Part shown: positions 25,589 through 48,038 of the stretch, piece by piece
How positions within the stretch are numbered: position 1 is the first letter of the stretch
How the letters are laid out: every line of letters starts with the position of its first letter
Origin: an uncultured virus (IMG/VR IMGVR_UViG_3300033066_001794)
Lineage: Duplodnaviria > Heunggongvirae > Uroviricota > Caudoviricetes
DNA length: 64,000 bases
Direction: 5' to 3' (one strand)
IMG/VR virus record: IMGVR_UViG_3300033066_001794
Notes under the pieces: model-generated
Databases searched by the model: none
What the model was told of the DNA's origin: nothing
What the model saw: only the letters and a program-made list of their open reading frames with translations
Program-made: the position numbers and the translations under genes

Positions 25589-25624
25589 CAAACAATAATT
25601 TAATAACAGCAAAAAACAAAAACT

Positions 25625-25939
25625 ATGTATCTCTACTTAATGTTCATTGAAGCTATTTTCAGATTAATTTTCTTTGTATTACTGCTTCCATACAAAATAC
25701 TTTCTTTGATTATGCGATATACGCTAAGTATCGTGAATGTGTTGAAATACAAGGAAAAAGTACTCATTGAATTAAAATTAAATCAAGATAAAAATAGTGT
25801 TGCACGTTTTCTTTTTTATCAATCATACGATGATAAATTTGTAGCCAATTGGAGAAGCTTTAATCGAAAAAGAATCAATAGATGGATAATAAGTTTGATG
25901 GTCTATATAATTTTAATTATCAGATTTACAATGTTTTAA
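25625..25939 (+). CDS. hypothetical membrane protein
   Basis: ORF track; hydrophobic termini. Confidence 0.45.
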   Translation: MYLYLMFIEAIFRLIFFVLLLPYKILSLIMRYTLSIVNVLKYKEKVLIELKLNQDKNSVARFLFYQSYDDKFVANWRSFNRKRINRWIISLMVYIILIIRFTMF

Positions 25940-25969
25940 ATACAAAACGAAAAAATAATTGAAAATAAA

Positions 25970-26002
25970 TTTGCATTTACAAAAATAATAGTTGTATATT
26001 TG
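25970..26002 (+). promoter_or_regulatory. Bacteroidota-type promoter for tRNA operon 1
   Basis: TTTG (25970) ... TATATTTG (25995-26002). Confidence 0.75.
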
Positions 26003-26043
26003 CATCTCATTACTACATGGTGTGGTAATAAATAATAAAAATC

Positions 26044-26154
26044 ATGACACGCAGAAACATTATAGTTAGAAATATGTGGATTGAACGCACGGGCGATAAG
26101 GCGTGTATTCATGGGGCTTCTGTTTATGGTTTAATTACAATCATGGGATTATAA
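26044..26154 (+). CDS. leader peptide 1 (MTRRNIIVRNMWIERTGDKACIHGASVYGLITIMGL)
   Basis: Manual translation; between promoter and terminator; codon content matches cluster 1 tRNAs. Confidence 0.8.
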   Translation: MTRRNIIVRNMWIERTGDKACIHGASVYGLITIMGL

Positions 26155-26177
26155 TAAAAACATAAAAATACAAACGG

Positions 26178-26207
26178 AAGCCTCAACCTAAAAAGTTGGG
26201 GCTTTTT
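26178..26207 (+). terminator. attenuator terminator 1
   Basis: AAGCCTCAAC/GTTGGGGCTT + T run; alternative pairing 26113-26125 with 26172-26184. Confidence 0.85.
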
Positions 26208-26214
26208 GTTTTAC

Positions 26215-26226
26215 GTTCTTTGAAAA
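26215..26226 (+). promoter_or_regulatory. boxA-like motif (also at 27236, 27854, 28590, 39550, 39754, 41668)
   Basis: GTTCTTT(G/A)AA repeated in tRNA-operon leaders and spacers. Confidence 0.65.
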
Positions 26227-26312
26227 TATGTATTGAGCTAATAGTGTTATTCGAATTATTTGCTTTGTTTATTTTTTTTGTTAACTTTACATTTCAAATA
26301 ATTATTAAAAAA

Positions 26313-27020
26313 ATGGGTGTTAATAGAAAAATAACAATTGAGCAATCAAATTTTGCTAAAAAAATGATTAAAGAAGGATTTACGTATATGCAAATATCGG
26401 AAGAATTAAATCTTACATGGGGATTGATAAAAAATCATTTGAATAGAGAAGGATACTACTCTGAAAACTTGAAAAGGAAAATTATTGAGTGTCTAAATTG
26501 TGGAAATTCTATTAGTAATATTGATTTTATTAATGGTAAACGTGTTGTAAGAACTAAATTTTGTAATAATTCTTGTTCAGCTTCATTTTCTAATAAATTT
26601 AGAATCAGAAATAAAAAAAAAGAAAAGCCGAAATGCGTGAATTGTGAGGGTGAGTGTAAAACTAATTTTACAAAATATTGTTCTGTTATTTGTCACTCTG
26701 ATTACAGGAATAAAAAATTAATTGAAAGGATAAATAATAATGATACAGATGGATTGAGCGATGTTGTATTAAAGAGAATTATGATATTAATGTATGGTGA
26801 AAAGTGTATGAAGTGTGGTTGGAACGAAATAAATGAGACAACAAAAAAAGTTCCAATTGAACTAAATCACAAAGATGGAAATTCTAAAAATAATAATTCT
26901 CATAATGTTGAATTAATTTGCCCGAATTGTCATTCATTAACACCAAATTATAAAGCTTTAAATAAAGGTAATGGAAGACATAGTAGAAGACAAAGAGCAA
27001 GAGATGGTAAGTCATATTAG
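26313..27020 (+). CDS. HNH endonuclease with Zn-finger repeats (likely start MGVNRK)
   Basis: CMKCG..IELNHKDGNSKNNNSHNVELICPNCH. Confidence 0.85.
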   Translation: MGVNRKITIEQSNFAKKMIKEGFTYMQISEELNLTWGLIKNHLNREGYYSENLKRKIIECLNCGNSISNIDFINGKRVVRTKFCNNSCSASFSNKFRIRNKKKEKPKCVNCEGECKTNFTKYCSVICHSDYRNKKLIERINNNDTDGLSDVVLKRIMILMYGEKCMKCGWNEINETTKKVPIELNHKDGNSKNNNSHNVELICPNCHSLTPNYKALNKGNGRHSRRQRARDGKSY

Positions 27021-27091
27021 CCGTAATAGTTTAGTCGGTAAAACAATAGATTTGTAATCTATATTCGAGGGTTCGATTCCTTCTCACGGCT
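27020..27091 (+). tRNA. tRNA-Thr(TGT)
   Basis: Cloverleaf; ATAGA-TTTGTAA-TCTAT; GTTCGATTC. Confidence 0.9.
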
Positions 27092-27154
27092 CAAAAAGAT
27101 TCCTCCCCATAAAAGCAGATATAGTGCGGGGACTTGCAGCAAGGAATCTTATAT

Positions 27155-27227
27155 TGCAATATAGCTCAGGTGGTAGAGCGTTTGGTTCATATCCAAAATG
27201 TCGAAAGTTCGAATCTTTCTATTGCGA
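27155..27227 (+). tRNA. tRNA-Met(CAT), probably elongator
   Basis: TTTGG-TTCATAT-CCAAA. Confidence 0.85.
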
Positions 27228-27280
27228 CAGTTTTAGTTCTTTGAAATATTAAAAATATCATTCGGGTTTTCCTGAATTGA

Positions 27281-27591
27281 TTAGAATGAGTTACCTGTGA
27301 GTGTCATTGAGAAAAAGGGGCTTCGAGCCTTGACATGATGAAATAGAAACTCTATGAAAAAAATAAATGAATGTAGCCGAAAAACAGGACTGCTCCAAAT
27401 TTGGATGAAACTAAAATTGTCTATAACTTAGATGAGCAGAGGTTTCAGGGCGGAACAAGACCGAAAAGCGCAAAACCTTTTCTTCGTTGGAGGCTATACG
27501 ATTTTATTTTGGAAGTGGAGAAACACTTTTGGAAATCCTTCCTGTGCGGTTGGAGAAAACGCAAAGAAGCACACATGCGTTCTCATTTTTA
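27281..27591 (+). ncRNA. candidate ~310-nt structured RNA, family unknown
   Basis: Closing AGAATGAG/CTCATTTT and many nested stems; GC-richer than flanks. Confidence 0.55.
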
Positions 27592-27601
27592 AGTATTAAA
27601 T

Positions 27602-27674
27602 TGGAAATTAGCTCATTTGGTAGAGCAGCACCCTGATAAGGTGCAGGTGTCAAGTTCGAAACTTGAATTTCCAA
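27602..27674 (+). tRNA. tRNA-Ile(GAT)
   Basis: GCACC-CTGATAA-GGTGC. Confidence 0.92.
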
Positions 27675-27688
27675 CGTTAAAAATATAG

Positions 27689-27763
27689 TGCGGGATAGAG
27701 CAGGGTTAGCTCGTTGGGTTCATATCCCAAAGGTCGGGTGTTAGAGTCACCCTCCCGCTACCA
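27689..27763 (+). tRNA. tRNA-fMet(CAT)
   Basis: 1:72 mismatch, three G-C pairs in anticodon stem, encoded CCA. Confidence 0.88.
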
Positions 27764-27775
27764 ATTGAAAAAAAA

Positions 27776-27847
27776 GTATAGATGGCTGAGTGGCTAAGCA
27801 CTTCACTGTTAATGAAGGTTACAGAGGTTCGAACCCTTTTCTATACG
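27776..27847 (+). tRNA. tRNA-Asn(GTT)
   Basis: CTTCA-CTGTTAA-TGAAG. Confidence 0.9.
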
Positions 27848-27872
27848 CAAATAGTTCTTTAAAATAAAAAAT

Positions 27873-27947
27873 AGTTATGTAGTTCAGCTCGGTTAGAATG
27901 CTACCCTGTCACGGTAGAGGTCGTGGGTTCGAGTCCCATCATAACTG
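27873..27947 (+). tRNA. tRNA-Asp(GTC)
   Basis: CTACC-CTGTCAC-GGTAG. Confidence 0.93.
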
Positions 27948-27957
27948 CAAAAAAAAC

Positions 27958-28042
27958 GCAAGTGCTAATACAATGGAGAGATGGATAGACTCCAAATCTG
28001 TTGCCCGAAAGGGATGTGTAGGTTCGACTCCTGCCGCTTGTG
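27958..28042 (+). tRNA. tRNA-Trp(CCA) with long variable arm
   Basis: ATAGA-CTCCAAA-TCTGT; variable region TGCCCGAAAGGGATGT. Confidence 0.8.
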
Positions 28043-28150
28043 CAAAAGAGTGTGATTTAATAATAGGCTCAAAGCCTTGCTGAAGCGGTGTTCAGTGTAG
28101 GAAGTTAGCTTTAAATTATGCTCTTAAAATATTAATTATTAAATTTGTAA

Positions 28151-28459
28151 ATGGAGTTAGGTAAAATCGAATTTTGCAGAATAGGTCAGAAGCAAAGATG
28201 TGGCACTACAAAATGTGAATGGAAAAAAGCTTTCAATCACTATTGTTGGCTCAGAGAACCTGAAGTGAAAAAATGTGAAGGAAACATTCATAGCGAAGAA
28301 AAGAAACCATTAGTTAAAAAGAGAAAAGGAAGAGTAGTAAAAGAAGAATTAAAGTACACAGAAATAAAACCTCACAAAGAAATTAAAGAGGTTGAATTTG
28401 AAAATAAATTTAAAACAGCATCCACTGATAATTGGATTAAAAAAATAAAAACATTATGA
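28151..28459 (+). CDS. hypothetical basic protein in tRNA cluster
   Basis: ORF track. Confidence 0.55.
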   Translation: MELGKIEFCRIGQKQRCGTTKCEWKKAFNHYCWLREPEVKKCEGNIHSEEKKPLVKKRKGRVVKEELKYTEIKPHKEIKEVEFENKFKTASTDNWIKKIKTL

Positions 28460-28507
28460 AAACAAAATTAGAAAAAATGGAATCAGACGAACCTTTTGAG
28501 ATTAAAT

Positions 28508-28579
28508 GCTCGGTTCGTCTAAGAGTAAGGACGTACTCCTTTCAAGGGTAAAATACGGTGGCAGAACCCGTACCGAGTA
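28508..28579 (+). tRNA. tRNA-Glu(TTC), atypical T-loop
   Basis: TACTC-CTTTCAA-GGGTA; acceptor GCTCGGT/ACCGAGT. Confidence 0.8.
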
Positions 28580-28609
28580 CAATTATTTAGTTCTTTGAAA
28601 ATATAAAAA

Positions 28610-28774
28610 TTGGTTATTAGTAACTCAGCACCCTAAGTGCAATAATTGATAAGCTACACAAATTTTTTGTGGTTAGAATTATCCGCAACTTAGATTAGTG
28701 AAAACTAAAATAAAGCGAGGGATTAATTATGTGGGAGGCGGCATAACTCCTAGAAAGCTGAAGCTGATAACCAA
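28610..28774 (+). ncRNA. candidate ~165-nt multibranch RNA
   Basis: TTGGTTATTAG/CTGATAACCAA and TCAGC/GCTGA closing stems, four internal arms. Confidence 0.55.
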
Positions 28775-28777
28775 CAT

Positions 28778-28849
28778 GCGAAATTCGTATAGTGCTTATT
28801 ACACTTCACTTCCAATGAAGATACATCAGTTGAATTCTGATATTTCGCT
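28778..28849 (+). tRNA. tRNA-Gly(TCC)
   Basis: CTTCA-CTTCCAA-TGAAG. Confidence 0.85.
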
Positions 28850-28860
28850 CAAATAAAAAT

Positions 28861-28934
28861 GACCATGTAGCTAATGTTGGCTTTGGCACACGTCTGCAAA
28901 ACGTGAAACACCTGTTCAATTCAGGTCATGGTCT
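28861..28934 (+). tRNA. tRNA-Cys(GCA)
   Basis: CACGT-CTGCAAA-ACGTG; U73. Confidence 0.88.
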
Positions 28935-28991
28935 CGCTCGTTTGCCCGAAAGGGTTTGTGTGGAGATAGCTACGAAGCATAACAAGAACGA

Positions 28992-29061
28992 TTGGCAGTG
29001 GTGTACGTTGCACGATGGGCGCATAACCCATAGGAGATTGTGTTGAATTCCTTCCTGCTGA
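28992..29061 (+). pseudogene. degenerate tRNA-like element with CAT anticodon arm
   Basis: ATGGG-CGCATAA-CCCAT, poor T arm. Confidence 0.45.
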
Positions 29062-29090
29062 AACTTATTGATTAATAAAAAAAAGTAAAA

Positions 29091-29129
29091 ATGAACAGAA
29101 GAGTAAAATACGAATATGGTTGTTGTTAG
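29091..29129 (+). CDS. 12-aa uORF MNRRVKYEYGCC
   Basis: Paralog at 29360-29398. Confidence 0.55.
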   Translation: MNRRVKYEYGCC

Positions 29130-29150
29130 GTAAACTAACAATTATACCAA

Positions 29151-29357
29151 ATGAAAAAATCAAAAGAATTAAAAAATCTTGTTGACCCAAGAGCTTACAG
29201 ATTATTAACTACCATTGACCAAGACCCTTACAGAGAAGAGTGTTGGAGTACACATCGAGCAGGTGGTACATTTAAGTGGAAGAAAAAAAGATTATACAAA
29301 TTTCAATACAGAATGTATAGAACTTGGAAGTATAACAGAAAAACTAAATACAAGTAA
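29151..29357 (+). CDS. small basic protein (..WKYNRKTKYK)
   Basis: ORF track; C-terminus similar to 29416-29586. Confidence 0.7.
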   Translation: MKKSKELKNLVDPRAYRLLTTIDQDPYREECWSTHRAGGTFKWKKKRLYKFQYRMYRTWKYNRKTKYK

Positions 29358-29359
29358 AA

Positions 29360-29398
29360 ATGAACAGGAGATGTAAATACGAATTTGGCTGCGGTTAG
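29360..29398 (+). CDS. 12-aa uORF MNRRCKYEFGCG
   Basis: Paralog of 29091-29129 with synonymous differences. Confidence 0.55.
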   Translation: MNRRCKYEFGCG

Positions 29399-29415
29399 TT
29401 TAAAAACTAATCGAA

Positions 29416-29586
29416 ATGAAACCAAAAAAAACAATGAGTGAAACTGTTGATAGTTCAACTTTTAAAAAGGTTTATTACATGATGGTATGTGATTGTCCGA
29501 AATGTCCTCCAAATAAAGGATGTAACAAAAACAGAAAAAAGTATCAAAAGAATTGGAAAAAATTTAGAAGCACAAAATGGAAGTAA
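29416..29586 (+). CDS. 56-aa basic Cys-rich protein (not in ORF track)
   Basis: MKPKKTMSETVDSSTFKKVYYMMVCDCPKCPPNKGCN..NWKKFRSTKWK. Confidence 0.65.
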   Translation: MKPKKTMSETVDSSTFKKVYYMMVCDCPKCPPNKGCNKNRKKYQKNWKKFRSTKWK

Positions 29587-29666
29587 AAAATAAAAATAGA
29601 AAAGCGCATAGATTCAAACTATAAGCCATTAGCTAAGCTTCGCTAGTGGTGATAACCTTGAAAGCT

Positions 29667-29912
29667 ATGAAGAATTTAAGTCGTGCCTATAACAGGTACA
29701 AACAAGAAACAAAATTTAAAAGACGTGTTAAAAATTGGTTCGCTCATCCATCTTGGAATGACGAAAAAGAAATTAAGAAAGCATTAACAGGAAATGGTTA
29801 TACTTTTTTAAAAACAACAAGCAGACCTTGTAATTGTTTTATGTGCAGCGGTGATAATAAATACAAGCGCACACAGAAGAATAAAGTCATAAGAGATGCA
29901 TTGAGAGAATAA
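29667..29912 (+). CDS. small basic protein with PCxCxMC motif
   Basis: LKTTSRPCNCFMCS; likely start MKNLSRA. Confidence 0.6.
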   Translation: MKNLSRAYNRYKQETKFKRRVKNWFAHPSWNDEKEIKKALTGNGYTFLKTTSRPCNCFMCSGDNKYKRTQKNKVIRDALRE

Positions 29913-29921
29913 TATTAATTA

Positions 29922-29994
29922 GTTCCTTTAGCTCAGGGGTAGAAGCATTCGGCTCATAACCGACAGGTCACTTGTTCGATTCAAGTAGGGAACA
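29922..29994 (+). tRNA. tRNA-Ile2(CAT, lysidine type) or Met
   Basis: TCGG-CTCATAA-CCGA and acceptor resemble bacterial Ile2. Confidence 0.8.
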
Positions 29995-30086
29995 CGACTA
30001 GGTTACAAAGTGTATGAGTAAGTAACATGGGTATTGTGGTAACGTAGTATTGGCGCACATGGTTGACAATAACACTCATACATAAA

Positions 30087-30161
30087 GGGGCATTGGCTGA
30101 GATAGGCGATGGCGATTCATTTGCAATGAATAAAACGGGGATTCAAGTTCCTCATGCTCCA
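30087..30161 (+). tRNA. tRNA-Ala(TGC)
   Basis: G3-U70; ATTCA-TTTGCAA-TGAAT. Confidence 0.88.
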
Positions 30162-30171
30162 CAAAAAATAT

Positions 30172-30247
30172 TGGGATATAGCTTAGCTCGGTCTAAAGCA
30201 GTAGTATTACAAACTACCTATCGTTGGTTCAAATCCATCTATCCCAA
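30172..30247 (+). tRNA. tRNA-Val(TAC)
   Basis: GTAGT-ATTACAA-ACTAC. Confidence 0.85.
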
Positions 30248-30275
30248 CTTAAATAAAAAAAATATAAAAAAACCA

Positions 30276-30338
30276 ATGTTAGTTACTAGAAACATAAAAT
30301 CTTTATCTTCTTTTTTGCGAAAGCGAAAGAGTAAGTAA
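30276..30338 (+). CDS. 20-aa micro-ORF MLVTRNIKSLSSFLRKRKSK
   Basis: Paralog at 30447-30509; A-rich upstream. Confidence 0.5.
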   Translation: MLVTRNIKSLSSFLRKRKSK

Positions 30339-30348
30339 TTATTTATAT

Positions 30349-30425
30349 GCGTCAGTAGCTCAGTTGGTAGATGCACCTCACTTTTAATGAGGGGGTCGGG
30401 AGTTCGAGTCTCCCCTGTCGCACCA
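30349..30425 (+). tRNA. tRNA-Lys(TTT)
   Basis: CCTCA-CTTTTAA-TGAGG; encoded CCA. Confidence 0.93.
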
Positions 30426-30446
30426 CTTTTAATGTAAAAAAAATAA

Positions 30447-30509
30447 ATGTTAACTACAAGGCACATAAGAACTTTCATCACTTCTCGCAGATTGCGAAGA
30501 GGTAGATGA
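30447..30509 (+). CDS. 20-aa micro-ORF MLTTRHIRTFITSRRLRRGR
   Basis: Paralog of 30276-30338. Confidence 0.5.
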   Translation: MLTTRHIRTFITSRRLRRGR

Positions 30510-30515
30510 TTGTAT

Positions 30516-30606
30516 GTTCCCGTAGCATAAATGGATAATGCACAAAACTTCTAATTTTGCTTTCTTTTTAAGAATCATGCAGGTTCGAATCCTGTCGGGA
30601 ATTCCA
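30516..30606 (+). tRNA. tRNA-Arg(TCT) with long variable arm
   Basis: CAAAA-CTTCTAA-TTTTG; variable region CTTTCTTTTTAAGAATCAT; CCA. Confidence 0.85.
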
Positions 30607-30608
30607 AA

Positions 30609-30682
30609 CTTTCAGTAGCTCAAATGGATAGAGCATCGCACTACGAATGCGAAGGTTGAGTGTTCGAGTCATTCCTGAAAGA
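30609..30682 (+). tRNA. tRNA-Arg(ACG)
   Basis: TCGCA-CTACGAA-TGCGA. Confidence 0.9.
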
Positions 30683-30777
30683 CTTATTTTATATGTTAAT
30701 AACTTTTTTACTTGTAATATCAAAAATGTTATTATATTTGCATTCAGTCAATACGGTCAAATTAAATCAAATTATTA

Positions 30778-33700
30778 ATGAAAGTAATCACATCAGATGT
30801 AAAAGCTAAGATATTTGCTCAATACATAGGGCAAATATTTATACATAGATTTCTAACTCCTGCTGTTGTTGAGCCTAGTGACTTATTACAAGTTACATAC
30901 ACAACTTGTTCTAAAATACAAGAAGACCATTGTTTGTTTTCAGGTATTCAGGTTGTATTAAAGTCATTACAAAATATTTCTGATGAAGATGCTATTGAGG
31001 TAGCTAAATATTTGAATTGGGGGAGAGATATTATAAAAAGGAGGTTGAGTGGAGATATTAGGGAAGACCAAAATATAGATGACCTTAGACAAACATATAT
31101 TAGAGTTGGCAAAGAATCAGTCATGATTTTCTTGGGTAAATTAGTCCCTTCAGTTATTACTTCACCTTTAGAGTGTGCTAATTGCTTTAATTTTTTACAG
31201 TCAAAAGGTTACGCACTTCCATATATGGATTATTCTGTCGAAGATTTAGTTGAACTTGGTATTTATAAATTAAAATAAAAAACAAAAATCATGAGCAAAG
31301 AATTTAATGAAATCATAAAAAAGTGTTTGAACACTAAGAAAATTCCTAAATCTGAATTATTGCTAAAATATAATGAGGAAGATATTTTTCAGATTAAATC
31401 AGATAAAAAACCTAAATCTATTAAGTCAAAAAAAACTAAGTAAAAATGAGCCAAGATTTAAGAGATTTAAACCTCCATACTGATGAAAACGGAAAAGTTT
31501 GGTTAAAAGGTGAAGATGGTAAATTGCTTACTGATGAAAGAGGTAGGAACATACCTGCTAGTCAAGGTAGAAAAATAAATGATAGTAGTGGTTTTACAAC
31601 ATACGATACATCTCAAGGACATTGTGCTTTATGTGGGGATTTATATTGCAGAGGAGGATGCTTCAAATAATATGGAAAACGCAATTCAAACAAAACATAA
31701 CTTAGACTTCCAAGTTGCAGAAAGTCCTTACAGCGTTGTTGGTAAAAAACATATGCTATTCAAAGTAGGCACTTGTCATGGTCAATGGGGAGATACGGGA
31801 GATAGTTACTTCATTCTTTCTGTGATGAACGATGAAATAGGAAACGGACATTTAGATGATGTTTTCGAATGGTTTGAATACTCAGCTAAACGTGATGGTA
31901 AAAATCTATTAGTTCTTGAATGTATGAACAAAAATTTCCATACTCATTTAGTAACTAAACGTGGATTCTTAGCTTTAGATGATGAGCAAAATAATTGCAT
32001 TAAAATCTTCAATGAAGATAAATACAAAATACTACTTAAAGAAGGAAATGGATTTATTGATAAAAAAACTTTAAAAAAATGAAATACATAATCAGTTTAA
32101 TTATAATTGTTACTTTTTTTAGTTGCAATCCACATCCTGAAGGCGATTCGAATGAATATAAAAATGGAGACTTCACAATTAAAACAATTGATAGTTGTGA
32201 GTATATCGAATATGATTATGGATATGGTGAACAGAGAGTTTATTCTATAACTCACAAAGGAAATTGTAAGTTTTGTTCGAAAAGAAATAAAAAGTAAAAA
32301 TGGAAGGATTTTGTAAAGGCGATATTTGTAATCGTAATGAGTGTCAAGGTGTAATTTCCGAATACGAAAAAGAAGGAAGTTGCAGTTGCCACATTCATCC
32401 TCCATGTGGATATTGTGAAGAGCCTAATGCTTATTGTGAAACATGTGGTTGGGATGCAAAAGAAGAGCGTGATGAGTTAGATAAAAAGAGACGTGAAGTT
32501 GTAAAAAGTAATGAAGCTTACTATGAAAAACAGAATAAAGATTTTGCAGAAGCTAGAGATTTATTCTATAAAAAGTTTAGAGGAGAAATACCTGCCGAAA
32601 AATTAGAAATACGTTCTGAGTCACATACACATTTTTCAATGAAAAAAATAGGAGTTTTTCCTGTTGGCTCTGAAACTCGTGAAAGTATTCTACCTAAAGT
32701 ATTAGGTACTTTTGGAGGTAGGTTCGCTAGGTTTGATGATTATTGTTTTGAATATATTGCATACACGGATTAAAAAATAAATAATGAAAGACGAAAAAGA
32801 ATTAGTAGTATTCCCTGATGATGAAATTGCTGCAAAAAAAATGACAGTAACAGGATGGGTAAGTCGTAATGGTAGATTTTATGGCTCTGATGAACGTACT
32901 GCTCGTCATGATGGTTCTACTCATAATAAATGTGAGTGTGGGAACAAGGTAACTAAAGGTTGGACTAAATGTGATTTTTGTATAAGTAAATCGGCTGTAG
33001 AAAGATATAAAGCTTATACTTTTCAAGAGTGGGATGGTAAACAGCCTGTTTATTCTGAGAACTATAGTAAATATTTTTATAATATTGATGAGATTGATGA
33101 TTTTTGTGAAGACTCAGAAGTTGACCCAAAAGACCTTATGCTTGTAATTTGCGATTCAAATTATTTGGATAAGATTGACAGTAGTATTTGGGAGGATAAA
33201 TTACCTGAAGATGGAGATATTCCAAAAGAACTACAAGATAAACTAAATGAGTTAAATCAATTTATTAAAACTTTACCTGCTATTAGTTATTCTCCATCAA
33301 AAATTAGAACCGAGTATAAAATTGAAAATAAATAATCATGGATGATAAAGTAAAAAAAATATTAGAAAAGAAATTTGGATATGATTTCGAGAGTGATTGG
33401 TTCACAGATGAAATACTAACTTTAGTTGATGATGTTATTGAGGCTACAAAAGAATCAATAGATGAAGTGGAATTAAGTTATGAAGAAAAAGTTAGTATTT
33501 ATGAAAAAGCAAAAAGAATAGTTGCTTCTGATTTAGCTTGGAACGAAAAATTTGATATGATTTTCTCGAAAGAAATATCACGTAAAATCGATTTTGATTA
33601 TTATTATCCTGATGGCGATTATGATGAGGATGTAATAGCTTTCATGAATGGATTTGATGAGTATATGAAGAAACAAGAAATTATTAAAAATCAAATAGGA

Positions 33701-35510: not shown

Positions 35511-35728
35511 AAACAAATAATAAACTAAAAACAGAAAAACAATGCGTGTAGTAGCTGAGTGGTGTACTATAATTAAAAAAGTAGAAGATAAAAACTAAAT
35601 AAAAAAAATGGGACATTTGATGATTATGTGCATTCCTTTATGTATGGCAGTTGTTTTATTGATTGCTTCATTGATAACAAACTATTGGTATAATAAAAAA
35701 ACAAATAATAAACTAAAAACAGAAAAAA

Positions 35729-36781
35729 ATGATTGATTTTACAAGAAGTGAATCCAACGAAATAGCAATACACTACGTTGGTAACAAAGGATTAGGTGAA
35801 GAGATGGTCTTCGCAAAAACACCGAATAAAATAGGTGATGAATGGGTTAAAAACACTATTTACCATTTCTTTTTTAATACATTTAAATCGGATGTTTATT
35901 TTCAATTCAGAAAGCCTGATGCGATTAAAATATACGATGTTCAATCGTATGTAAGAGATGTATTTGATGACCCATCAACTATGTTTGATAAATCTCAAAA
36001 AATAGCACAGATACTTTATGACCAAAGTAATCATCCTAAAATAAAAGGTGGTGATTTCTTTATGACGTATATCAAAGATTGCGTTGTAGATGGAGAGCTT
36101 TGCGATGCTATTGGAATCTTCAAGTCAGAGAACAAAGAAACATACTTGAAATTAAATCAAAACTTAGATAGCTTTGATTTAGAAGCAGAAAATGGAATTA
36201 ACATCAACAAGTTAGATAAAGGATGTTTAATATTCAATATTGATAGCGATAAAGGATACAAAATAAGCATCGTTGATAATAGCCATAAAATAGCTCAGGC
36301 AGCTTTGTATTGGACAGAAGATTTCTTAGGTGTGAAATTACGTGAAGATAGATTCTTTCATACAAACAACATGTTAGCCACAATTAATAATTTCTGTGAA
36401 GAAGTTTTAACTCAGGAAAACAATGTTGAGCCTGTTGACCAAATGATGATTAAAGATAGGTCACTAAACTACTTTAAAGATAAGGATAGATTTAACCTAG
36501 AAGAATTTCAAGCAGAAGTTTTATCTCAACCTGAATTAATTGATAGCTTCAAGGAATACCGAACAATTAGTGAAGAAGTTAACCATGTAAAGAATGATAT
36601 TGAAGACTTCGAAATTTCAGCAACAGCGGTAAAGAAACAAGAGAAGTATTTCAGAGGAATCATAAAATTAGATAAAAACTTCCATCTTTACATTCATGGA
36701 AGACATGACTTAGTTCAAAAAGGTTTTGATGAAGAAAAAGGAATGAAGTTTTACAAGGTGTTTTACAATAACGAAGAGTAA
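35729..36781 (+). CDS. nucleoid-associated protein (YejK/NdpA-like, Bacteroidota type)
   Basis: IHYVGNK..HPKIKGG..AIGIFKSENKE..GININKLDKGCLIFN..IKLDKNFHLYIHG. Confidence 0.85.
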   Translation: MIDFTRSESNEIAIHYVGNKGLGEEMVFAKTPNKIGDEWVKNTIYHFFFNTFKSDVYFQFRKPDAIKIYDVQSYVRDVFDDPSTMFDKSQKIAQILYDQSNHPKIKGGDFFMTYIKDCVVDGELCDAIGIFKSENKETYLKLNQNLDSFDLEAENGININKLDKGCLIFNIDSDKGYKISIVDNSHKIAQAALYWTEDFLGVKLREDRFFHTNNMLATINNFCEEVLTQENNVEPVDQMMIKDRSLNYFKDKDRFNLEEFQAEVLSQPELIDSFKEYRTISEEVNHVKNDIEDFEISATAVKKQEKYFRGIIKLDKNFHLYIHGRHDLVQKGFDEEKGMKFYKVFYNNEE

Positions 36782-36783
36782 TT

Positions 36784-38190
36784 ATGTTTCAAGTTAAAGT
36801 TTTAGATACTACATACAGGCACAATACTGTCATTATTTGTGTTCCAAAAGACCTAAAGAACCACATCGGAAGTACTGATGTGGTTTTAAAGGAAATTCAT
36901 GGACAGCTAACAATAAGAGCTGCTACTATTATGGATACTAAAACTTTGAAGATTGATAGTATGAGTAAAATAACCTTAACCTGTGATAACGCAAAAGATT
37001 ATTTAGGTGAATGGATTTTAGAGCCTGATGGAGATTTATATTGGTTTTACAGAAACACAAATAACTAAAAAATAAAAAATGGAAAGTTTTAAAATTGAAG
37101 TTGACGCAAAAGATTTAAAAGAAAAATTTAACGCTATATTAAGTAAGGTAATTGAAGATTCTCTTACTAAAGAAAAGGAAAGTATTCAGGAGTCTATAAA
37201 AACATATTTCCATAAAAGTTTTTTTAATGATAAAATAACTCAATTTGATAGAGCTTTGGATTGGCAAATAGAAAGTGTTTTCAGAGAAGGAGTAGGTAAG
37301 GCAATGGAAGAACTCAACTTCAAAGAGTTGATAGCTGAAAAAGCAAAAGAAATGCTTTCTAATAGTGATTTAATTAAAGACTTAGTTGATTCTAAAGTTA
37401 GAAGTTCATTGGGTTTGCCTAAAAAGGATTAAAATGAGTGCAGATAACGGAATATACATAGCTAAGTTTCCTGATGGATATAGAGTGATTTATACGCAGT
37501 GTATAGATAACATAGACTTCTATCCTGAAGGCACTAAACAAAGAAAAAAGGAACTTAAAAAATACTTCGGTAAAAGTAAGTTATTTGAAACAGAAGATAG
37601 TGCCTATAAAGAAGCTAAATTGATGGAAAAAGAATTCACTAAGGATGGTGACTATCTTGAATATGGAGTTTGCTATATTGGAGAGTACGAAAGTTTTAAT
37701 TGAAAATTAAATGGAAAATATTGAATTAATATTTAAACCAAAAAATGATTCCGACTACAGAGTTATATATATCGAATATCAGAATGGGATGCCACATTCT
37801 GCAATAATAGAAGATGTTTTGCATGGATATTTAAGGTCTTATGATTTTGGTTTTTTTGAAGATGACAAAAAGGATGTGTTTCACTATGATAGTGGAGGAG
37901 GTGGAGATAAAAATAAATTACAAGCTCCTAAATATCAATCTACGTATAGGGGTGGAGCATATTGGTTACACCCAACAGCTAAATTTAAAGGGCGTGTTGT
38001 AAATTGTAGAAAACTTGCAAAACCAATTGAAATAGAAACATATTGGGGTAAAAGCATAAATCCGTTTGAACATTCGGACGAAGTAAATCACTATGAATAT
38101 TGTTCTGATTGCGGCAAGAATTTTCGAGACCATTGTGAAGAGCATCAATATTATGATGAAAAAGAAAATTTAAAATATTACAATCAGTGA
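36784..38190 (+). CDS. four hypothetical ORFs
   Basis: ORF track. Confidence 0.6.
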
Positions 38191-38780
38191 AAACAGAGTT
38201 AGAAGTTTTACAAGATTTATTCGGAAAAGAAACTAATATTTTTTCATCAGAAGATGTAGTTAAGGCAATACGTGTTTTTGCCAATCAATTTAGGTGGGTT
38301 AAAACAACTTGCGGAAAATATATTGAGTTTGATGATTTTGATTACGAAGTTCTTAGACAACAAGACGTTTGGTTTGATGAACAGAGACAAGCAGTAATGG
38401 CACTTTGGATTTCAAAAGAAGGAAAAAGAGTTGTAGCTCCTGTTGCTAAATTATTACTTGAAGCAGAAGGTAAAACGGTAATTCATTATAAAGATAGGAA
38501 TCCATTAAATTTAAGAAGAGATAATCTTGAATTAATAAGCCATCAAAAAGCTCACTACAAAGAGAAAAAACAAAGAACAGCTAATGGTAATGTTCCAAGT
38601 AGTATTTATAAAGGAGTCAGTTGGAATAAGTTCGCTAACAAGTGGTCTGCGTCAATAAAATTAGACTACAAGAAAAAACATTTAGGTTATTTCCTTAGCG
38701 AAGAAGATGCTGCTAAAGCATATAATGAAGCTGCTATTGAAAATTGGGGAGTCGAATATTCAGAATTAAATGTATTGTAA
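38187..38780 (+). CDS. HNH-AP2 domain protein (HNH degenerate)
   Basis: IHYKDRNPLNLRRDNL; SIYKGVSW..W.ASI..HLGYF..EEDAAKAYN. Confidence 0.85.
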   Translation: MKTELEVLQDLFGKETNIFSSEDVVKAIRVFANQFRWVKTTCGKYIEFDDFDYEVLRQQDVWFDEQRQAVMALWISKEGKRVVAPVAKLLLEAEGKTVIHYKDRNPLNLRRDNLELISHQKAHYKEKKQRTANGNVPSSIYKGVSWNKFANKWSASIKLDYKKKHLGYFLSEEDAAKAYNEAAIENWGVEYSELNVL

Positions 38781-39321
38781 AATGAAAAAAAGAATAAAAT
38801 CATTAAAGGAATTAAAAGAATGGAATGCTAATCCAACAAAAGAATTACCAATCGTATATGAATGGTTTATGGATTGGTTTTTCAAAGATGTTTTAATGAA
38901 AGACAAATTTAAATTAGCTAAAGATGCTCATGAAACTCACGTTGAATTCTGTATGATATGTAATAATTTCACAAGAGAGCAGGCTATTGAAAGAGTAAAT
39001 AGAAATATTGATTATTATTCAAGTTACTCGGTAAAATGGGAGAATAAATTGGATAAATATTTTCCTGAAGTTAGACGTATTTTAAATTAAAAAAATAAGA
39101 TGAAAAAAGAAGACGTTAAAGAATTAAGACTTGGTTTATACCGTATTTATTGGAAGAAACAAGCAGGAGGAGGAACTTCTGTAGCCTCTATAGGCATGTT
39201 ACATGATGGGCAAAAATGGATTGCCCCTACAAATTGGACTGCAAAAGTTGGAGAGAATCCAACAGCATTCGGTAAGATTTGGGATAAAGTTAAAAAAGTA
39301 GAATTAATTTGCGTCGAATAA
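38770..39321 (+). CDS. two hypothetical ORFs
   Basis: ORF track. Confidence 0.55.
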
Positions 39322-39409
39322 TTTTATTTCGCTCATTTTCAATTTAATATGATTTTAATTAAAAATAAATTTTGCGGATAAATAAATAATCCTTTACTTT
39401 GCATCCATT

Positions 39410-39478
39410 ATGAAAAATTTATCACTACATAGTTCGTTGTATCTAAGCCCAAAAGGTTCAGGTGACTTTCTATTGTAG
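39410..39478 (+). CDS. leader peptide 2 (MKNLSLHSSLYLSPKGSGDFLL)
   Basis: Follows TTTG..TTACTTTGC promoter-like motif; codons match cluster 2 tRNAs. Confidence 0.8.
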   Translation: MKNLSLHSSLYLSPKGSGDFLL

Positions 39479-39504
39479 TTAAACATATTTGTTTACATGA
39501 TAAG

Positions 39505-39534
39505 AACCCTGAACTGAAAAGTTTGGGGTTTTTT
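39505..39534 (+). terminator. attenuator terminator 2
   Basis: AACCCTGAAC/GTTTGGGGTT + TTTT; GGTTCAGG (39455) can sequester the left arm. Confidence 0.85.
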
Positions 39535-39566
39535 GTTTTACATTAATTCGTTCTTTAAAAATATAT

Positions 39567-39654
39567 GGTGAATGTGCGTGAGTGGTCGAAACGAGTAGAT
39601 TGTGGTTCTACTGATATGTAAATATCCACGAGGGTTCAAATCCCTTCATTTACC
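39567..39654 (+). tRNA. tRNA-His(GTG) with long variable arm
   Basis: G-1/C73; GTAGA-TTGTGGT-TCTAC; GATAT-GTAA-ATATC arm. Confidence 0.85.
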
Positions 39655-39659
39655 CAAAA

Positions 39660-39743
39660 GGAGAGTAAACCTATCAGGGTAGGCGCAACCTGCTAAGTTG
39701 TCGGCTCGGTTAAACGAGTGTGGGTCACGACCACTGCTCTCCG
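39660..39743 (+). tRNA. tRNA-Ser(GCT)
   Basis: GCAAC-CTGCTAA-GTTGT; long arm; G73. Confidence 0.8.
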
Positions 39744-39769
39744 CAAAAAAAAAGTTCTTTAAATAAATT

Positions 39770-39852
39770 GGAAGGAGGCGACCATTGGTGGTCAACAAGA
39801 CTTGAAATCTTGAGCGGTCAGAAATGACAGGGTTCGATTCCTACTCTTTCCG
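39770..39852 (+). tRNA. tRNA-Ser(TGA)
   Basis: CAAGA-CTTGAAA-TCTTG; long arm; G73. Confidence 0.85.
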
Positions 39853-39860
39853 CAATAAAC

Positions 39861-39944
39861 TGAGATACGCTAGAGTTGGAGAGCTAGGTTGGTCTGTAAA
39901 ACCAATGTCTTATGACTGATTCGGTTCGATTCCGAATATCTCAA
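39861..39944 (+). tRNA. tRNA-Tyr(GTA)
   Basis: TTGGT-CTGTAAA-ACCAA. Confidence 0.88.
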
Positions 39945-39949
39945 CAAAT

Positions 39950-40032
39950 ACCCGTATGGTGGAATGGAATACACATAGGTCTTAAAAACCTACGCCCTTT
40001 GAGGATTGCAAGTTCAAGTCTTGTTACGGGTA
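39950..40032 (+). tRNA. tRNA-Leu(TAA)
   Basis: TAGGT-CTTAAAA-ACCTA. Confidence 0.9.
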
Positions 40033-40047
40033 CTAAAAAAATAAAGA

Positions 40048-40398
40048 ATGAAAACATATAGAAAAAACAGAACCCAATGTGCTAAATTATTTAGTGTAAA
40101 CGGAATTTCAATGTTAGGTTTTTTAGTTGGAGAACAGGATAACAAACAAACTTTTGAAACATTAAAAGGAGAAAGAGTAAATGTATCTACTATTAAAAAC
40201 TCAGAAGGTAAAATAGAGGATATTGGCGATGAAATAGTTGAAATAACACTTGCTTATAAAAGAGTTACAAATACAAAAACAGGGATAATAACAACAACTC
40301 CATTTGGAAATGTTATAACTAAAAATAGTGTTGGAGGTAAAATTATGCGAACTCCGAAAGATGTTTTATGTACAAATAAATTAATTAAAGTCAATTAA
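40048..40398 (+). CDS. hypothetical protein in tRNA cluster 2
   Basis: ORF track. Confidence 0.6.
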   Translation: MKTYRKNRTQCAKLFSVNGISMLGFLVGEQDNKQTFETLKGERVNVSTIKNSEGKIEDIGDEIVEITLAYKRVTNTKTGIITTTPFGNVITKNSVGGKIMRTPKDVLCTNKLIKVN

Positions 40399-40408
40399 AA
40401 AAATATAT

Positions 40409-40489
40409 GCGAGCATGGTGGAATGGCAGACACACATGATTTAGAATCATGCGCAGAAATGCATGAGGTTTCGAGTACCTCTGCTCGTA
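40409..40489 (+). tRNA. tRNA-Leu(TAG)
   Basis: CATGA-TTTAGAA-TCATG. Confidence 0.88.
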
Positions 40490-40493
40490 CTTT

Positions 40494-40964
40494 TTATTTT
40501 GAATAATATTCAAGTCTTAATTCATCAGCAATCTCATTTGCTACTTTAAATTTTTCTTGATTTTTATTTCCATTTCCGTATTCATAATGACACTCAGTAC
40601 ATTTAATCATTATGTTTCTTTCATCAAGTCGTAGAGATGGATAAGCTCCTTTAGGAAGTAGATGACTCATATAACTAACATTAAGTTCATCTCCTAGTTT
40701 TTTGTCACAGCAGTTACATATATGCTTCCGTTCGCTCCATATCTTCACAAACATTTCTCCCTCACCTGAAGCTTTTCTTTTATAAACTATTGCAGTACGT
40801 TTTAATTGCTTTTGAACTTTCTTTGGCTTGTCTTTATTTTTCTCAGCAGACTTTTTTCGTTGTTCAATTGAGTAGTGATAGCCACATAAAGGCGGTCTTT
40901 TTTTAGCTAATTGTTTTTCTTTACCATCATTACAAAACTTGCAAATACCTTTCATTATTATCAT
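40494..40964 (-). CDS. NinG/HNH-like nuclease
   Basis: CNCC..SHLLPKGAYPSLRLDERNIMIKCTECH. Confidence 0.65.
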   Translation of the reverse strand: MIIMKGICKFCNDGKEKQLAKKRPPLCGYHYSIEQRKKSAEKNKDKPKKVQKQLKRTAIVYKRKASGEGEMFVKIWSERKHICNCCDKKLGDELNVSYMSHLLPKGAYPSLRLDERNIMIKCTECHYEYGNGNKNQEKFKVANEIADELRLEYYSK

Positions 40965-41113
40965 AATGCTAATATAAGTTTTTTAATTGATATTAAGTGT
41001 CGTAAAGTATCTTTAAGTGTTTTAATTAACTTTAATCGTTTTTATTTAGTAGTAATCATTTATAATGACTAAACTTTTTTATATAGTCGTATATTTGTGA
41101 AAAACAAGTAAAA

Positions 41114-41446
41114 ATGAAAAAGACAACAGCAACAGCAAAAAAAAAAGGTTTTGTATTAACCTCTAATAAATACAAAGATGAACATGGTGAATATGCTTTT
41201 ATAGAGCCTACTGATAAGAAAAAATATTTTTATAAAAAATCAATTTTTGTCATTAAATCATTTCTTGGTAAATCAACATTTGAAGATAAAAAAGTTAAAT
41301 GTATTCATTGTGATAAAAAATTTAATCTAAGTGAATATAAGGCTGTCATTTGCTTGAATCACATTAATAGTGAAATAATAGGAAGTGAATTTATAGTTTG
41401 TAAACATTCTCCAAAATGCGATGGTAGTTTGATTGATTTTTTTTGA
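41114..41446 (+). CDS. hypothetical Zn-binding protein
   Basis: CIHCD..CKHSPKCDGSLID. Confidence 0.6.
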   Translation: MKKTTATAKKKGFVLTSNKYKDEHGEYAFIEPTDKKKYFYKKSIFVIKSFLGKSTFEDKKVKCIHCDKKFNLSEYKAVICLNHINSEIIGSEFIVCKHSPKCDGSLIDFF

Positions 41447-41505
41447 TTAAAAAAATAATTGAAAATAAATTTGGTAGATTGAAAAACATTTCTTTACTTT
41501 GCATC

Positions 41506-41598
41506 ATGAAAACAACAAACGTATACTTTCAACAATTTTTCCCTCAACAACCGCAGTTTAGATTGCGATTGTCAGGAAGTTCTTGTCCGTGTGCGTGA
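41506..41598 (+). CDS. leader peptide 3 (MKTTNVYFQQFFPQQPQFRLRLSGSSCPCA)
   Basis: Directly after TTACTTTGC promoter-like motif; F/Q/P run matches cluster 3 tRNAs. Confidence 0.8.
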   Translation: MKTTNVYFQQFFPQQPQFRLRLSGSSCPCA

Positions 41599-41623
41599 GA
41601 AAATATATCACAAACAAACAATG

Positions 41624-41653
41624 AAGACCCTGACTAATTATCAGGGTTTTTTT
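41624..41653 (+). terminator. attenuator terminator 3
   Basis: AAGACCCTGA/TCAGGGTTTT + T run; GTCAGG..TCTT (41571-41584) can pair with the left arm. Confidence 0.85.
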
Positions 41654-41686
41654 ATGTTCAAAAAATAGTTCTTTAAAATAAAATAA

Positions 41687-41762
41687 CGCAATGTACGGAA
41701 GTTTGCTTTTTCCGACCAAGTTTGGGACTTGGGAAGCGCAGGTTGAAATCCTGCCATTGCGA
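41687..41762 (+). tRNA. tRNA-Pro(TGG)
   Basis: CCAAG-TTTGGGA-CTTGG. Confidence 0.85.
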
Positions 41763-41768
41763 CAACAT

Positions 41769-41841
41769 CAGGGTATATATCAATTGGTAGATTACTCGCT
41801 TTGGATGCGAGAGGTTGTAGATTCGAGTTCTGCTACCCTGA
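41769..41841 (+). tRNA. tRNA-Pro(TGG), second divergent copy
   Basis: CTCGC-TTTGGAT-GCGAG. Confidence 0.82.
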
Positions 41842-41889
41842 CTTAGGTAATAATAATTTAACAACAAACAATAGGCTGAAAAGCCTTAT

Positions 41890-41963
41890 GTGGTGGTAGC
41901 TGAGTTGGTTCAAGCGTCAGACTGAAAATCTGAAGTAGGTCGGTTCGATTCCGACACATCACA
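41890..41963 (+). tRNA. tRNA-Phe(GAA)
   Basis: TCAGA-CTGAAAA-TCTGA. Confidence 0.9.
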
Positions 41964-42009
41964 CTTGTTTTTTTTGTATATTTGTTTTCTGAAAATAAAA
42001 TATATGAAC

Positions 42010-42082
42010 TGCCTTATAGTGTAACTGGCAACACGCTTGATTTTGATTCAAGAGACTCTACGTTCGAGCCGTAGTGAGGCAA
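42010..42082 (+). tRNA. tRNA-Gln(TTG)
   Basis: CTTGA-TTTTGAT-TCAAG; U1-A72. Confidence 0.9.
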
Positions 42083-42114
42083 CTAATTAGTAGTAAATAA
42101 CATAAATTAATTGA

Positions 42115-42417
42115 ATGAAAAAGATTTACATTAGTGGCAAAATAACAGGCTTAGAATTATGCGATGCTGAACGTTTATTTAATGAAGCTGAATCTAAATG
42201 TATAGAATTAGGATTCGTCCCTGTTAATCCAATAAAGCTAAATCATGCCCATGATAAGACTTGGTTATCCTACATGAAGGAAGATATTATTGCTATGATG
42301 GAGTGCGATGCTATATTTATGTTATCAAATTACAAAACAAGCAAAGGAGCTATGATAGAATTAGAGCTTGCCAAAGAACTTGGTTTTTCAATTTACTTTG
42401 ATGGAGATGCTAACTAA
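42115..42417 (+). CDS. DUF4406 / nucleoside deoxyribosyltransferase-like protein
   Basis: KIYISGKITG..VNP..W..YM..CDAIFML..SKGAMIE. Confidence 0.8.
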   Translation: MKKIYISGKITGLELCDAERLFNEAESKCIELGFVPVNPIKLNHAHDKTWLSYMKEDIIAMMECDAIFMLSNYKTSKGAMIELELAKELGFSIYFDGDAN

Positions 42418-42630
42418 CGAAGAATTAACCAATAGGTTAATGTGTAAAGAAGAACATTCAGTGAGTAAACCTGAATGTTACGTTTCAAGTGTAACAGGAA
42501 AGGAGTACGATTTTACTATGTACACTAATCATGGTCATGGACAAATATATAGAGGCTTCCTTGATTTGCCAATTGATGAGTATCCATTTAATATAAAATA
42601 TAAAAAGGTTGCTATTGAAACTTGGAAAAA

Positions 42631-42807: not shown

Positions 42808-42827
42808 GATAAAAATAACATTATAAA

Positions 42828-48010: not shown

Positions 48011-48038
48011 TTTTATTGATTTAGGTAAAATATTTAAT

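Follow-up and report, generated by a model that had tools for sequence, protein, structure and literature searches.

Each of the three clusters of transfer RNA (tRNA) genes within a 64-kb stretch of DNA from an uncultured virus of the class Caudoviricetes (IMG/VR record IMGVR_UViG_3300033066_001794; the whole stretch is referred to as the window) is preceded by a short leader open reading frame (ORF) whose codons list the tRNAs encoded downstream, and by an intrinsic terminator followed by the boxA-like motif GTTCTTTRAAAW. Judged from its sequence, each tRNA cluster most probably represents an operon under ribosome-mediated leader-peptide transcription attenuation, which would sense the operon's own product. 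The general claim is considered strong because leader codon content covaries with cluster content across phages, and the window is an especially clean case, in which three operons of one genome partition all 20 amino acids.

Leader codons and tRNA content in the window and in other phages

Screening of the 64-kb window with ARAGORN at the default threshold yielded 25 tRNA genes, all located on the + strand and grouped in three clusters. The tRNA model of Rfam confirmed 21 of the 25 outright. Cluster 1 (27020–30683, +) comprises genes for Thr, Met, Ile, Met, Asn, Asp, Trp, Glu (divergent), Gly, Cys, Met, Ala, Val, Lys, Arg(tct) and Arg(acg), with small ORFs interspersed among them. Cluster 2 (39568–40490, +) carries His, Ser(gct), Ser(tga), Tyr, Leu(taa) and Leu(tag), and cluster 3 (41687–42083, +) carries Pro(tgg) in two copies, Phe and Gln.

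Leader ORF 1 (26044–26154, +; 36 codons) encodes MTRRNIIVRNMWIERTGDKACI followed by HGASVYGLITIMGL, and its sensor run (codons 2–22, 26047–26109) is restricted to T, R, N, I, V, M, W, E, G, D, K, A and C. Leader ORF 2 (39410–39478, +; 22 codons) consists of MKN, the sensor run LSLHSSLYLS (codons 4–13, 39419–39448) and PKGSGDFLL, while leader ORF 3 (41506–41598, +; 30 codons) consists of MKTTNVY, the sensor run FQQFFPQQPQF (codons 8–18, 41527–41559) and RLRLSGSSCPCA. The clusters split the 20 amino acids 13/4/3, counting a tRNA-Glu found at relaxed threshold, and the leader runs split them identically. In-set runs of 21, 10 and 11 codons in leaders 1, 2 and 3 cover all amino acids of the respective cluster (13/13, 4/4 and 3/3), whereas runs matching a wrong cluster comprise at most five codons in the window matrix. 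With amino-acid frequencies taken from the 59 long ORFs of the window, the probabilities of these runs are 1.5e-3, 1.7e-6 and 6e-10, respectively. Furthermore, each run codon of leader 2 is readable by a cluster 2 tRNA under strict wobble, and all six tRNAs of this cluster are used at least once. Codon matching is in one reading frame, the leader ATGs are located in an A-rich context, a Shine-Dalgarno sequence is not present at the leaders, and 21–24 nt separate the stop codons from the terminator stems.

Glutamate was the sole leader 1 amino acid without a cluster 1 tRNA at the default threshold, and it pointed to a divergent tRNA-Glu(ttc) at 28507–28580, whose T arm is non-canonical and which was detected by ARAGORN at a relaxed threshold and missed by default ARAGORN and by Rfam's tRNA model (E up to 1). 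In a close relative, contig G001 (169.7 kb), a normal tRNA-Glu(ttc) occupies the same position between Trp and Gly, and leader 1 of this contig contains two Glu codons. The three G001 leaders read MKRRNIIVENMWSENTGDKACT..., MKNTSLHSYLSLYPKQ... and MKITNTYTQQFFPQQPQF..., and compared with the window their composition is kept while the order is altered (SLHSYLSLY vs LSLHSSLYLS). A conserved functional peptide was rejected for this reason.

Related loci were gathered via a DUF4406 neighbour gene and via DNA patterns derived from the junction of terminator and boxA-like motif. The neighbour gene led to 30 loci, only one of which shares the tRNA clusters. The pattern TTTTTGTTTT...GTTCTTTRAAAW was found in at least 120 stretches, at least 47 of which feature a + strand tRNA within 1.2 kb downstream; these correspond to at least 34 distinct upstream regions, at least 33 of them with an ORF by the criteria applied. 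A looser pattern scan was discarded as returning mostly chance matches (4 of 118 loci had downstream tRNAs).

Within the 372-kb jumbo phage G002, six leaders were identified. The leader QSRFQVVFFVQQVQ is located before genes for Gln, Phe, Arg(acg), Val and Arg, LSLCLCLLL before five Leu and one Cys, NIHINTNTHKHNTT before two Asn, two His and three Thr, VIIKKSISIKIKK before four Lys, GGYPCAADADYGCGTGM before Asp, Gly, two Tyr, Met, four Pro and Ala, and WSSRRRSSSR before three Ser, Arg(tct, cct) and Trp. Ile codons in the leader of the Lys cluster pointed to two tRNAs missed by ARAGORN, which appear as Rfam tRNA matches just after the Lys genes; the first is Ile(gat) (ARAGORN, relaxed threshold), and the anticodon loop of the second, read by eye, is TAT. 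Moreover, Arg codons of G002 follow the isoacceptors, with CGC/CGT in the leader of the Arg(acg) cluster and AGA/AGG in that of the Arg(tct/cct) cluster.

Leaders of further phages follow other tRNA groupings. In G004, IINIFEFNVIED precedes Asp, Glu, Ile, Phe and Ile(tat), and KNTNRNMVVTAKATTKGGRNN precedes Thr, Lys, Asn, Arg, Val, Ala, Met and Gly. Additional examples are QQQQQQ before two tRNA-Gln, YYYEE before Glu and Tyr, and LLHTLLLDRQGLLRRL before Leu, Arg and Leu, as well as MLQTSKHSKHFSSSSKWF... with a terminator before Trp, His (two copies), Phe, Lys and Ser in an uncultured 735-kb phage (GenBank LR756501.1). G003, G005 and a third group (L333/L356) possess sigma-70-like promoters and leaders of 40–42 codons in front of 22–28 tRNAs; all 20 amino acids are present in the G003, G005 and L356 leaders, for which the chance is about 0.003 each (41 random codons). 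Across lineages, the stop codon lies 18–32 nt before the terminator in most candidates outside the window that track their cluster.

In order to evaluate the association statistically, a uniform detector (terminator, ATG-initiated ORF ending 5–45 nt upstream, tRNA within 1.3 kb) was applied to the window and all sufficiently long loci. It gave 65 candidates, several false-looking ones being retained. Removal of four candidates to which no tRNA was assigned, followed by collapsing of leaders more than 60% alike (25 of 61 removed, including window leader 1), left 36. The permutation test comprised the 29 leaders with sets of up to 12 amino acids and counted the whole ORF minus Met1. In total, 325 of 794 codons were in-set as compared to 168.7±15.3 after permutation (maximum 238), and none of 100,000 permutations reached 325; with the window left out, the values were 300 of 744 and 159.5±14.7. 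Furthermore, among 33 leaders and with Met excluded, 158 of 161 tRNA identities present in a cluster were represented by their amino acid in the leader, as compared to 272 of 466 identities absent from the cluster (Mantel-Haenszel odds ratio 39.7, p 1e-20, stratified by amino acid); the leaders do list the tRNAs of their operons. Chance ORFs were rejected based on the permutation test and the run probabilities obtained for the window. These results uphold the claim of the initial annotation, made from the window sequence, that leader codons match the downstream tRNAs and are partitioned between the clusters, and two of the checks it had proposed, namely covariation in other genomes and permutation of leader codons against clusters, turned out in its favour.

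A search of the leader regions by blastn against 50,697 phage records retrieved no cultured phage with these leaders; matches were limited to promoter-like regions of Flavobacteriia phages, tRNAs and the uncultured LR756501/LR756503. Regarding a host counterpart, three of the 120 genome-contig matches listed had a downstream tRNA and none had the leader ORF layout. A 625-nt locus (L134) features two tRNA-Met behind a Bacteroidota-type promoter, a hairpin with a T tract and GTTCTTTAAAAT; no convincing codon-matched leader was seen at this locus, which may represent a leaderless variant of the module. G002 also encodes tRNAs with the anticodons TTA and CTA, i.e., ochre and amber suppressors according to ARAGORN (locus L161, 3795–3867; locus L163, 4092–4166 and 5177–5250; coordinates refer to the reverse complement). 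One of the CTA tRNAs is located directly after a promoter-like element, without a leader ORF. The presence of suppressor tRNAs hints at stop-codon recoding in G002.

The shared module and its predicted RNA switch

The layout common to all three clusters comprises an AT-rich block, a promoter-like element, the short ORF, the terminator and GTTCTTTRAAAW. Within the window, the AT-rich block TAATTRAAAATAAATT is present solely at the three leaders, and the promoter-like element shared by the modules is of the form TTTG...TTTGCATC. In module 1 (25956–26006, +), the shared TAATTGAAAATAAATT is accompanied by TTTG, a 21-nt spacer and TATATTTG, then CATC, whereas module 2 (39356–39405, +) reads TAATTAAAAATAAATT ... 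TTTACTTTGCATC. In module 3 (41456–41505, +), TTTGCATC directly abuts the ATG of leader 3, which suggests a very short or absent 5' untranslated region. According to blastn, the upstream block is similar to sequences between genes in phages of Cellulophaga, Riemerella, Tenacibaculum and Elizabethkingia, and module 1 to intergenic promoter regions of the first three. This resemblance, together with the 30% G+C content of the window, would fit a host within the Flavobacteriia. The Bacteroidota promoter pattern was not enriched in the window (8 occurrences vs 7.5 expected), a scan that has no statistical power for internal promoters.

Two further observations concern the module edges. The 5' untranslated region of leader 1 contains a four-codon mini-ORF (ATG GTG TGG TAA, 26017–26028) inside a small hairpin, and this mini-ORF is kept in G001. 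Upstream of module 3, a stretch at 40965–41451, which includes a 110-aa ORF (41114–41446), is absent in contigs of three public runs. Since the joint abuts the start of the leader 3 promoter module, the module behaves as a discrete unit.

The three top-ranking + strand terminator-like sites of the region 25000–43000 (26176–26206, 39502–39533 and 41623–41651) each precede a tRNA cluster. Terminator 1 (26176–26214, +) features a 12-pair stem with a T tract and a hairpin energy of -15.0 kcal/mol, terminator 2 (39502–39541, +) a 14-pair stem and terminator 3 (41623–41659, +) an 11-pair stem, both likewise with a T tract. The terminators are followed by GTTCTTTGAAAA (26215–26226, +), GTTCTTTAAAAA (39550–39561, +) and GTTCTTTAAAAT (41668–41679, +), respectively. 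Altogether, GTTCTTTRAAAW occurs in seven copies in the window as compared to 0.39 expected; of the remaining copies, three are located within cluster 1 (27236, 27854 and 28590) and one in an unrelated - strand ORF.

The designation boxA-like reflects the resemblance of this motif to the bacterial boxA consensus. As in boxA/Nus antitermination of the rrn type, GTTCTTTRAAA is positioned shortly after the promoter-proximal part of a long operon for untranslated RNA, and further copies are found within that operon. Beside four 16S start motifs in three Bacteroidota or Ignavibacteriota genomes, the exact motif did not appear, and membership in the boxA class finds no support from the rRNA leaders of these three genomes. 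In Flavobacterium rivuli, none of the 21 motif occurrences examined adjoins tRNA genes.

Complementarity between the ORF tail and the terminator was observed in addition to codon matching. In leader 1, the antiterminator 5' strand (26112–26128, +; codons 23–29) is predicted to pair with 26168–26185, including the terminator 5' arm, with a duplex energy of -16.3 kcal/mol (z -5.4 vs shuffles). The corresponding strand of leader 2, GGTTCAGGTGAC (39455–39466, +), pairs with the 5' arm of its terminator (z -2.6), and folding of the full-length leader instead sequesters it with the sensor codons in a 1:2 hairpin. In leader 3, GTCAGGAAGTTCTTGT (41571–41586, +) pairs with GAAGACCCTGA(C) of the terminator. 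At minimum energy, leaders 2 and 3 adopt this 1:2 anti-antiterminator, in which sensor codons pair with the 3' part of the ORF, together with the terminator hairpin; leader 1 folds into the antiterminator instead. In folds of leaders 2 and 3 from which the terminator 3' arm is withheld, the ORF's 3' part binds the terminator 5' arm (GGTTCAGG/CCTGAACC and GTCAGG/CCTGAC, respectively). As modelled, leaders 2 and 3 are of the classical 1:2, 2:3, 3:4 arrangement.

Across the collected leaders, the last 48 nt of the ORF have a mean pairing energy of -10.98 kcal/mol with the arm of their own terminator as compared to -7.25 kcal/mol with the arms of other leaders, an advantage reached by none of 100,000 permutations. 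The own arm ranked first for 11 of the 36 leaders and among the top three for 22 of them. Furthermore, antiterminator z values below -2 against shuffles were obtained for 21 of 37 candidates, and false-looking candidates showed values near 0.

Proposed attenuation mechanism and alternative explanations

Based on these features, each module would be transcribed from a strong promoter of the Bacteroidota type, and its leader ORF would be entered by a ribosome. Provided that the sensor codons are decoded quickly, the ribosome would reach the 3' part of the ORF and the stop codon, 18–32 nt before the terminator. It would then occupy or unwind the antiterminator strand, the terminator would form and the polymerase would halt before the tRNA genes. 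A shortage of any one listed aminoacyl-tRNA would make the ribosome stall inside the sensor run, whereupon the downstream ORF segment would pair with the terminator 5' arm, resulting in polymerase read-through. Past the terminator, the boxA-like motif would probably load an antitermination complex of the Nus type to serve the long array, which is untranslated. Such a circuit would exert negative feedback on the pool of tRNAs, and OR logic would apply across all tRNAs of the operon. Leader translation, stalling, the in vivo direction of the switch and the role of the boxA-like motif are the parts of this scheme that we infer from sequence.

Several observations weigh against attenuation as outlined here. 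Protein ORFs and three more boxA-like motifs are present within operon 1, which may also contain internal promoters. The minimum-energy fold of leader 1 is the antiterminated form without a clear 1:2 anti-antiterminator, and this leader may be open unless translated. In the simple duplex test alone, the antiterminator of leader 3 is not significant (z -0.26), and z values above -2 were obtained for 15 of the 37 candidates. For Leu, Ser and Arg, the isoacceptors give modest support (125 of 166 vs 111.5 expected, p 0.008), this signal being blurred by truncated loci and missed tRNAs. Moreover, leader 1 of G001 contains one out-of-set Ser (codon 13), stray Ser, Ile or Lys occur in several G002 leader runs, and some phage tRNAs, e.g., the G002 suppressor tRNAs, have no leader. 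Finally, stalling reports charged tRNA, and amino-acid starvation would also open the switch even though more tRNA would be of no help. With respect to the initial annotation, its common layout in front of all three clusters was confirmed by the ranking of the terminators and by the shared block, ORF and GTTCTTTRAAAW. Its boxA-like motif proved recurrent after each terminator, the name itself expressing a resemblance. Its interpretation is supported in part: codon-matched attenuation of each tRNA operon draws strong support from the anatomy, the partition within one genome and the test across phages, and leader 1 is predicted to fold into the antiterminated form by default.

The proposed circuit could also be read, as in the initial annotation, as primarily a counter-defence sensor, in which host anticodon nucleases or similar defences aimed at tRNAs cleave the listed tRNAs and replacements are supplied on demand. 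Leaders list every tRNA identity of their operon, often by single codons (158 of 161), which would suit the loss of a single tRNA species better than starvation, and tRNA-cleaving defences as well as tRNA rescue by phages are documented in the available text of PMC11464382 and PMC12409363. However, no sequence feature ties the leaders to nucleases, and plain homeostasis or economy, or compensation for host tRNA decay during infection, would fit the same circuit equally well; a primary role in counter-defence is regarded as possible but rather unlikely. An improbable reading is that the leaders act as general sensors of translation capacity in the manner of whiB7 or ermC, with codon content being secondary. 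It would agree with the finding that leaders comprising all 20 amino acids precede complete tRNA sets, but it leaves unexplained that differing leaders of one genome track their own cluster (21, 10 and 11 codons vs at most five) and that such tracking is also apparent in the six G002 leaders and in the permutation test.

Least probable, and very much so, is that the ORFs are untranslated, the codon runs acting as RNA, e.g., by T-box-like anticodon pairing, or being compositional by-products, and the terminator representing a constitutive attenuator or the end of an upstream unit. Translation of the leaders is deduced from sequence features, which leaves room for this reading; the lack of a Shine-Dalgarno sequence, which might be cited in its favour, is expected in Bacteroidota according to the available text of PMC9723704. 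Matching in one frame, the ATG in an A-rich context and the stop codon 18–32 nt before the terminator in most cluster-tracking candidates across lineages argue against it, as does the location of each terminator behind its own promoter-like module rather than behind an upstream gene. Furthermore, neither a T-box nor another Rfam family was recognized, the best match being Thr_leader (27.6 bits vs a gathering threshold of 55); the T-box was rejected, given that no Rfam T-box match appeared at E up to 1. Attenuation by translated leaders is preferred over these alternatives. For its interpretation, the architecture and the logic are supported, the function is putative and the trigger is speculative.

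Genomic surroundings, known attenuators and implications

Unusually long tRNAs were observed in the window for Trp (27958–28043, 86 nt), Arg(tct) (30516–30606, 91 nt) and His (39568–39655, 88 nt vs 73 nt for the G001 tRNA-His). They may contain insertions, introns or long extra arms. In this case, cluster 2 would consist of long tRNAs only (Leu, Ser, Tyr and His). A 235-aa ORF (26313–27020, +) with an HNH-like Cys/His motif recognized by eye is located between attenuator 1 and the first tRNA and had no Pfam match at 1e-3; the corresponding gap in G001 is comparably wide, since the terminator ends at 767 and the first tRNA starts at 1583. A second HNH-type protein (HNH_3/AP2) is encoded at 38187–38780. 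The small ORFs within cluster 1 (28151–28459, 29151–29357, 29416–29586 and 29646–29912) encode very basic products, and two of them were searched against Pfam without a match. Similar elements of about 60 nt (AAATGAACAG.AG...AATACGAAT.TGG) are situated upstream of two of the small basic ORFs, at about 29090 and 29358. Two G+C-richer, structured-looking stretches between tRNAs (27250–27600 and 28935–29060) had no Rfam match (E up to 1) and may represent small RNAs of a new type or tRNA remnants. Other Pfam matches in the window comprise a protein with HTH_17, Sigma70_r4 and RNA_pol_A_CTD (20058–21131, -), NAMPT-like and PRPP-synthetase-like proteins of nicotinamide adenine dinucleotide (NAD) salvage (46562–48073, - and 48278–49168, -) and a homologue of the 37-kD nucleoid-associated protein (35729–36781, +).

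Among described systems, the nearest are leader-peptide attenuators of amino-acid operons, which include trpL, hisL, pheL and leuL as well as the multivalent thrL (Thr, Ile) and ilvL (Leu, Val, Ile). The tRNA leaders share with them an ORF with regulatory codons, an overlapping antiterminator, an intrinsic terminator and, in leaders 2 and 3, the 1:2/2:3/3:4 logic. In contrast to these systems, tRNA genes would be the regulated genes, the operon's own product would be sensed, up to 13 or even 20 amino acids are listed, many of them by single codons, and the attenuators are phage-borne and followed by a boxA-like motif. To our knowledge, the genes regulated by all described leader-peptide attenuators encode amino-acid biosynthesis enzymes or aminoacyl-tRNA synthetases. 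Among the leader families of Rfam, the single match in the window, to Thr_leader at 26129–26210, remained below the gathering threshold. Attenuation also controls pheST, via the pheM leader, and other aminoacyl-tRNA synthetase genes, and T-box leaders are known from Firmicutes; as in the proposed circuit, genes of the translation apparatus are controlled by charging or availability of a given tRNA. However, those systems control protein genes for one amino acid, and the T-box reads uncharged tRNA without a ribosome, whereas here several to all tRNA identities would be read by a translating ribosome. The upstream ORFs of whiB7 and ermC are attenuators that sense general translation stress. In these systems too, slowing of the ribosome on a short ORF is conveyed to a terminator or a switch in structure, and they differ from the present leaders in that codon content is here specific to the downstream tRNAs and varies among operons of one genome. 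Leader peptides are furthermore known for hisS, as given in the available text of PMC2965389, and that of PMC9723704 reports signs of leader-peptide attenuation at amino-acid operons of flavobacteria and translation without Shine-Dalgarno sequences.

In the full-text literature searched, no description of attenuation of tRNA genes was found, in phages or otherwise, in agreement with the novelty assumed at the outset for codon-matched attenuation of phage tRNAs. Term searches of the available text gave no mention of tRNA genes in the survey by Naville and Gautheret and none of attenuation, leader peptides or terminators in the huge-phage paper, which we take to be the source of LR756501.

The regulation and carriage of tRNAs by phages are open questions, for which a codon-listing leader offers a concrete, testable circuit. 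The findings would extend leader-peptide attenuation to RNA genes and to leaders of up to 20 amino acids and tie in with current work on defences that target tRNAs. Moreover, such a leader would represent a compact natural sensor of individual tRNA availability with possible use as a reporter, and it is of value for annotation, since leaders predicted tRNAs overlooked by standard tools. As a tentative and somewhat doubtful extension, phages of several unrelated lineages may possess a modular, self-updating controller of the decoding pool, in which a leader naming all of its tRNAs gates every tRNA operon and leader codons are co-edited as tRNAs are gained, lost or moved, and which would allow real-time detection and exact replacement of tRNAs lost by the host, including losses to anticodon nucleases. 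If true, these would be the first tRNA genes under attenuation and the first direct product feedback on tRNA transcription, and the leaders would provide a readable record of the tRNAs that each phage treats as limiting.

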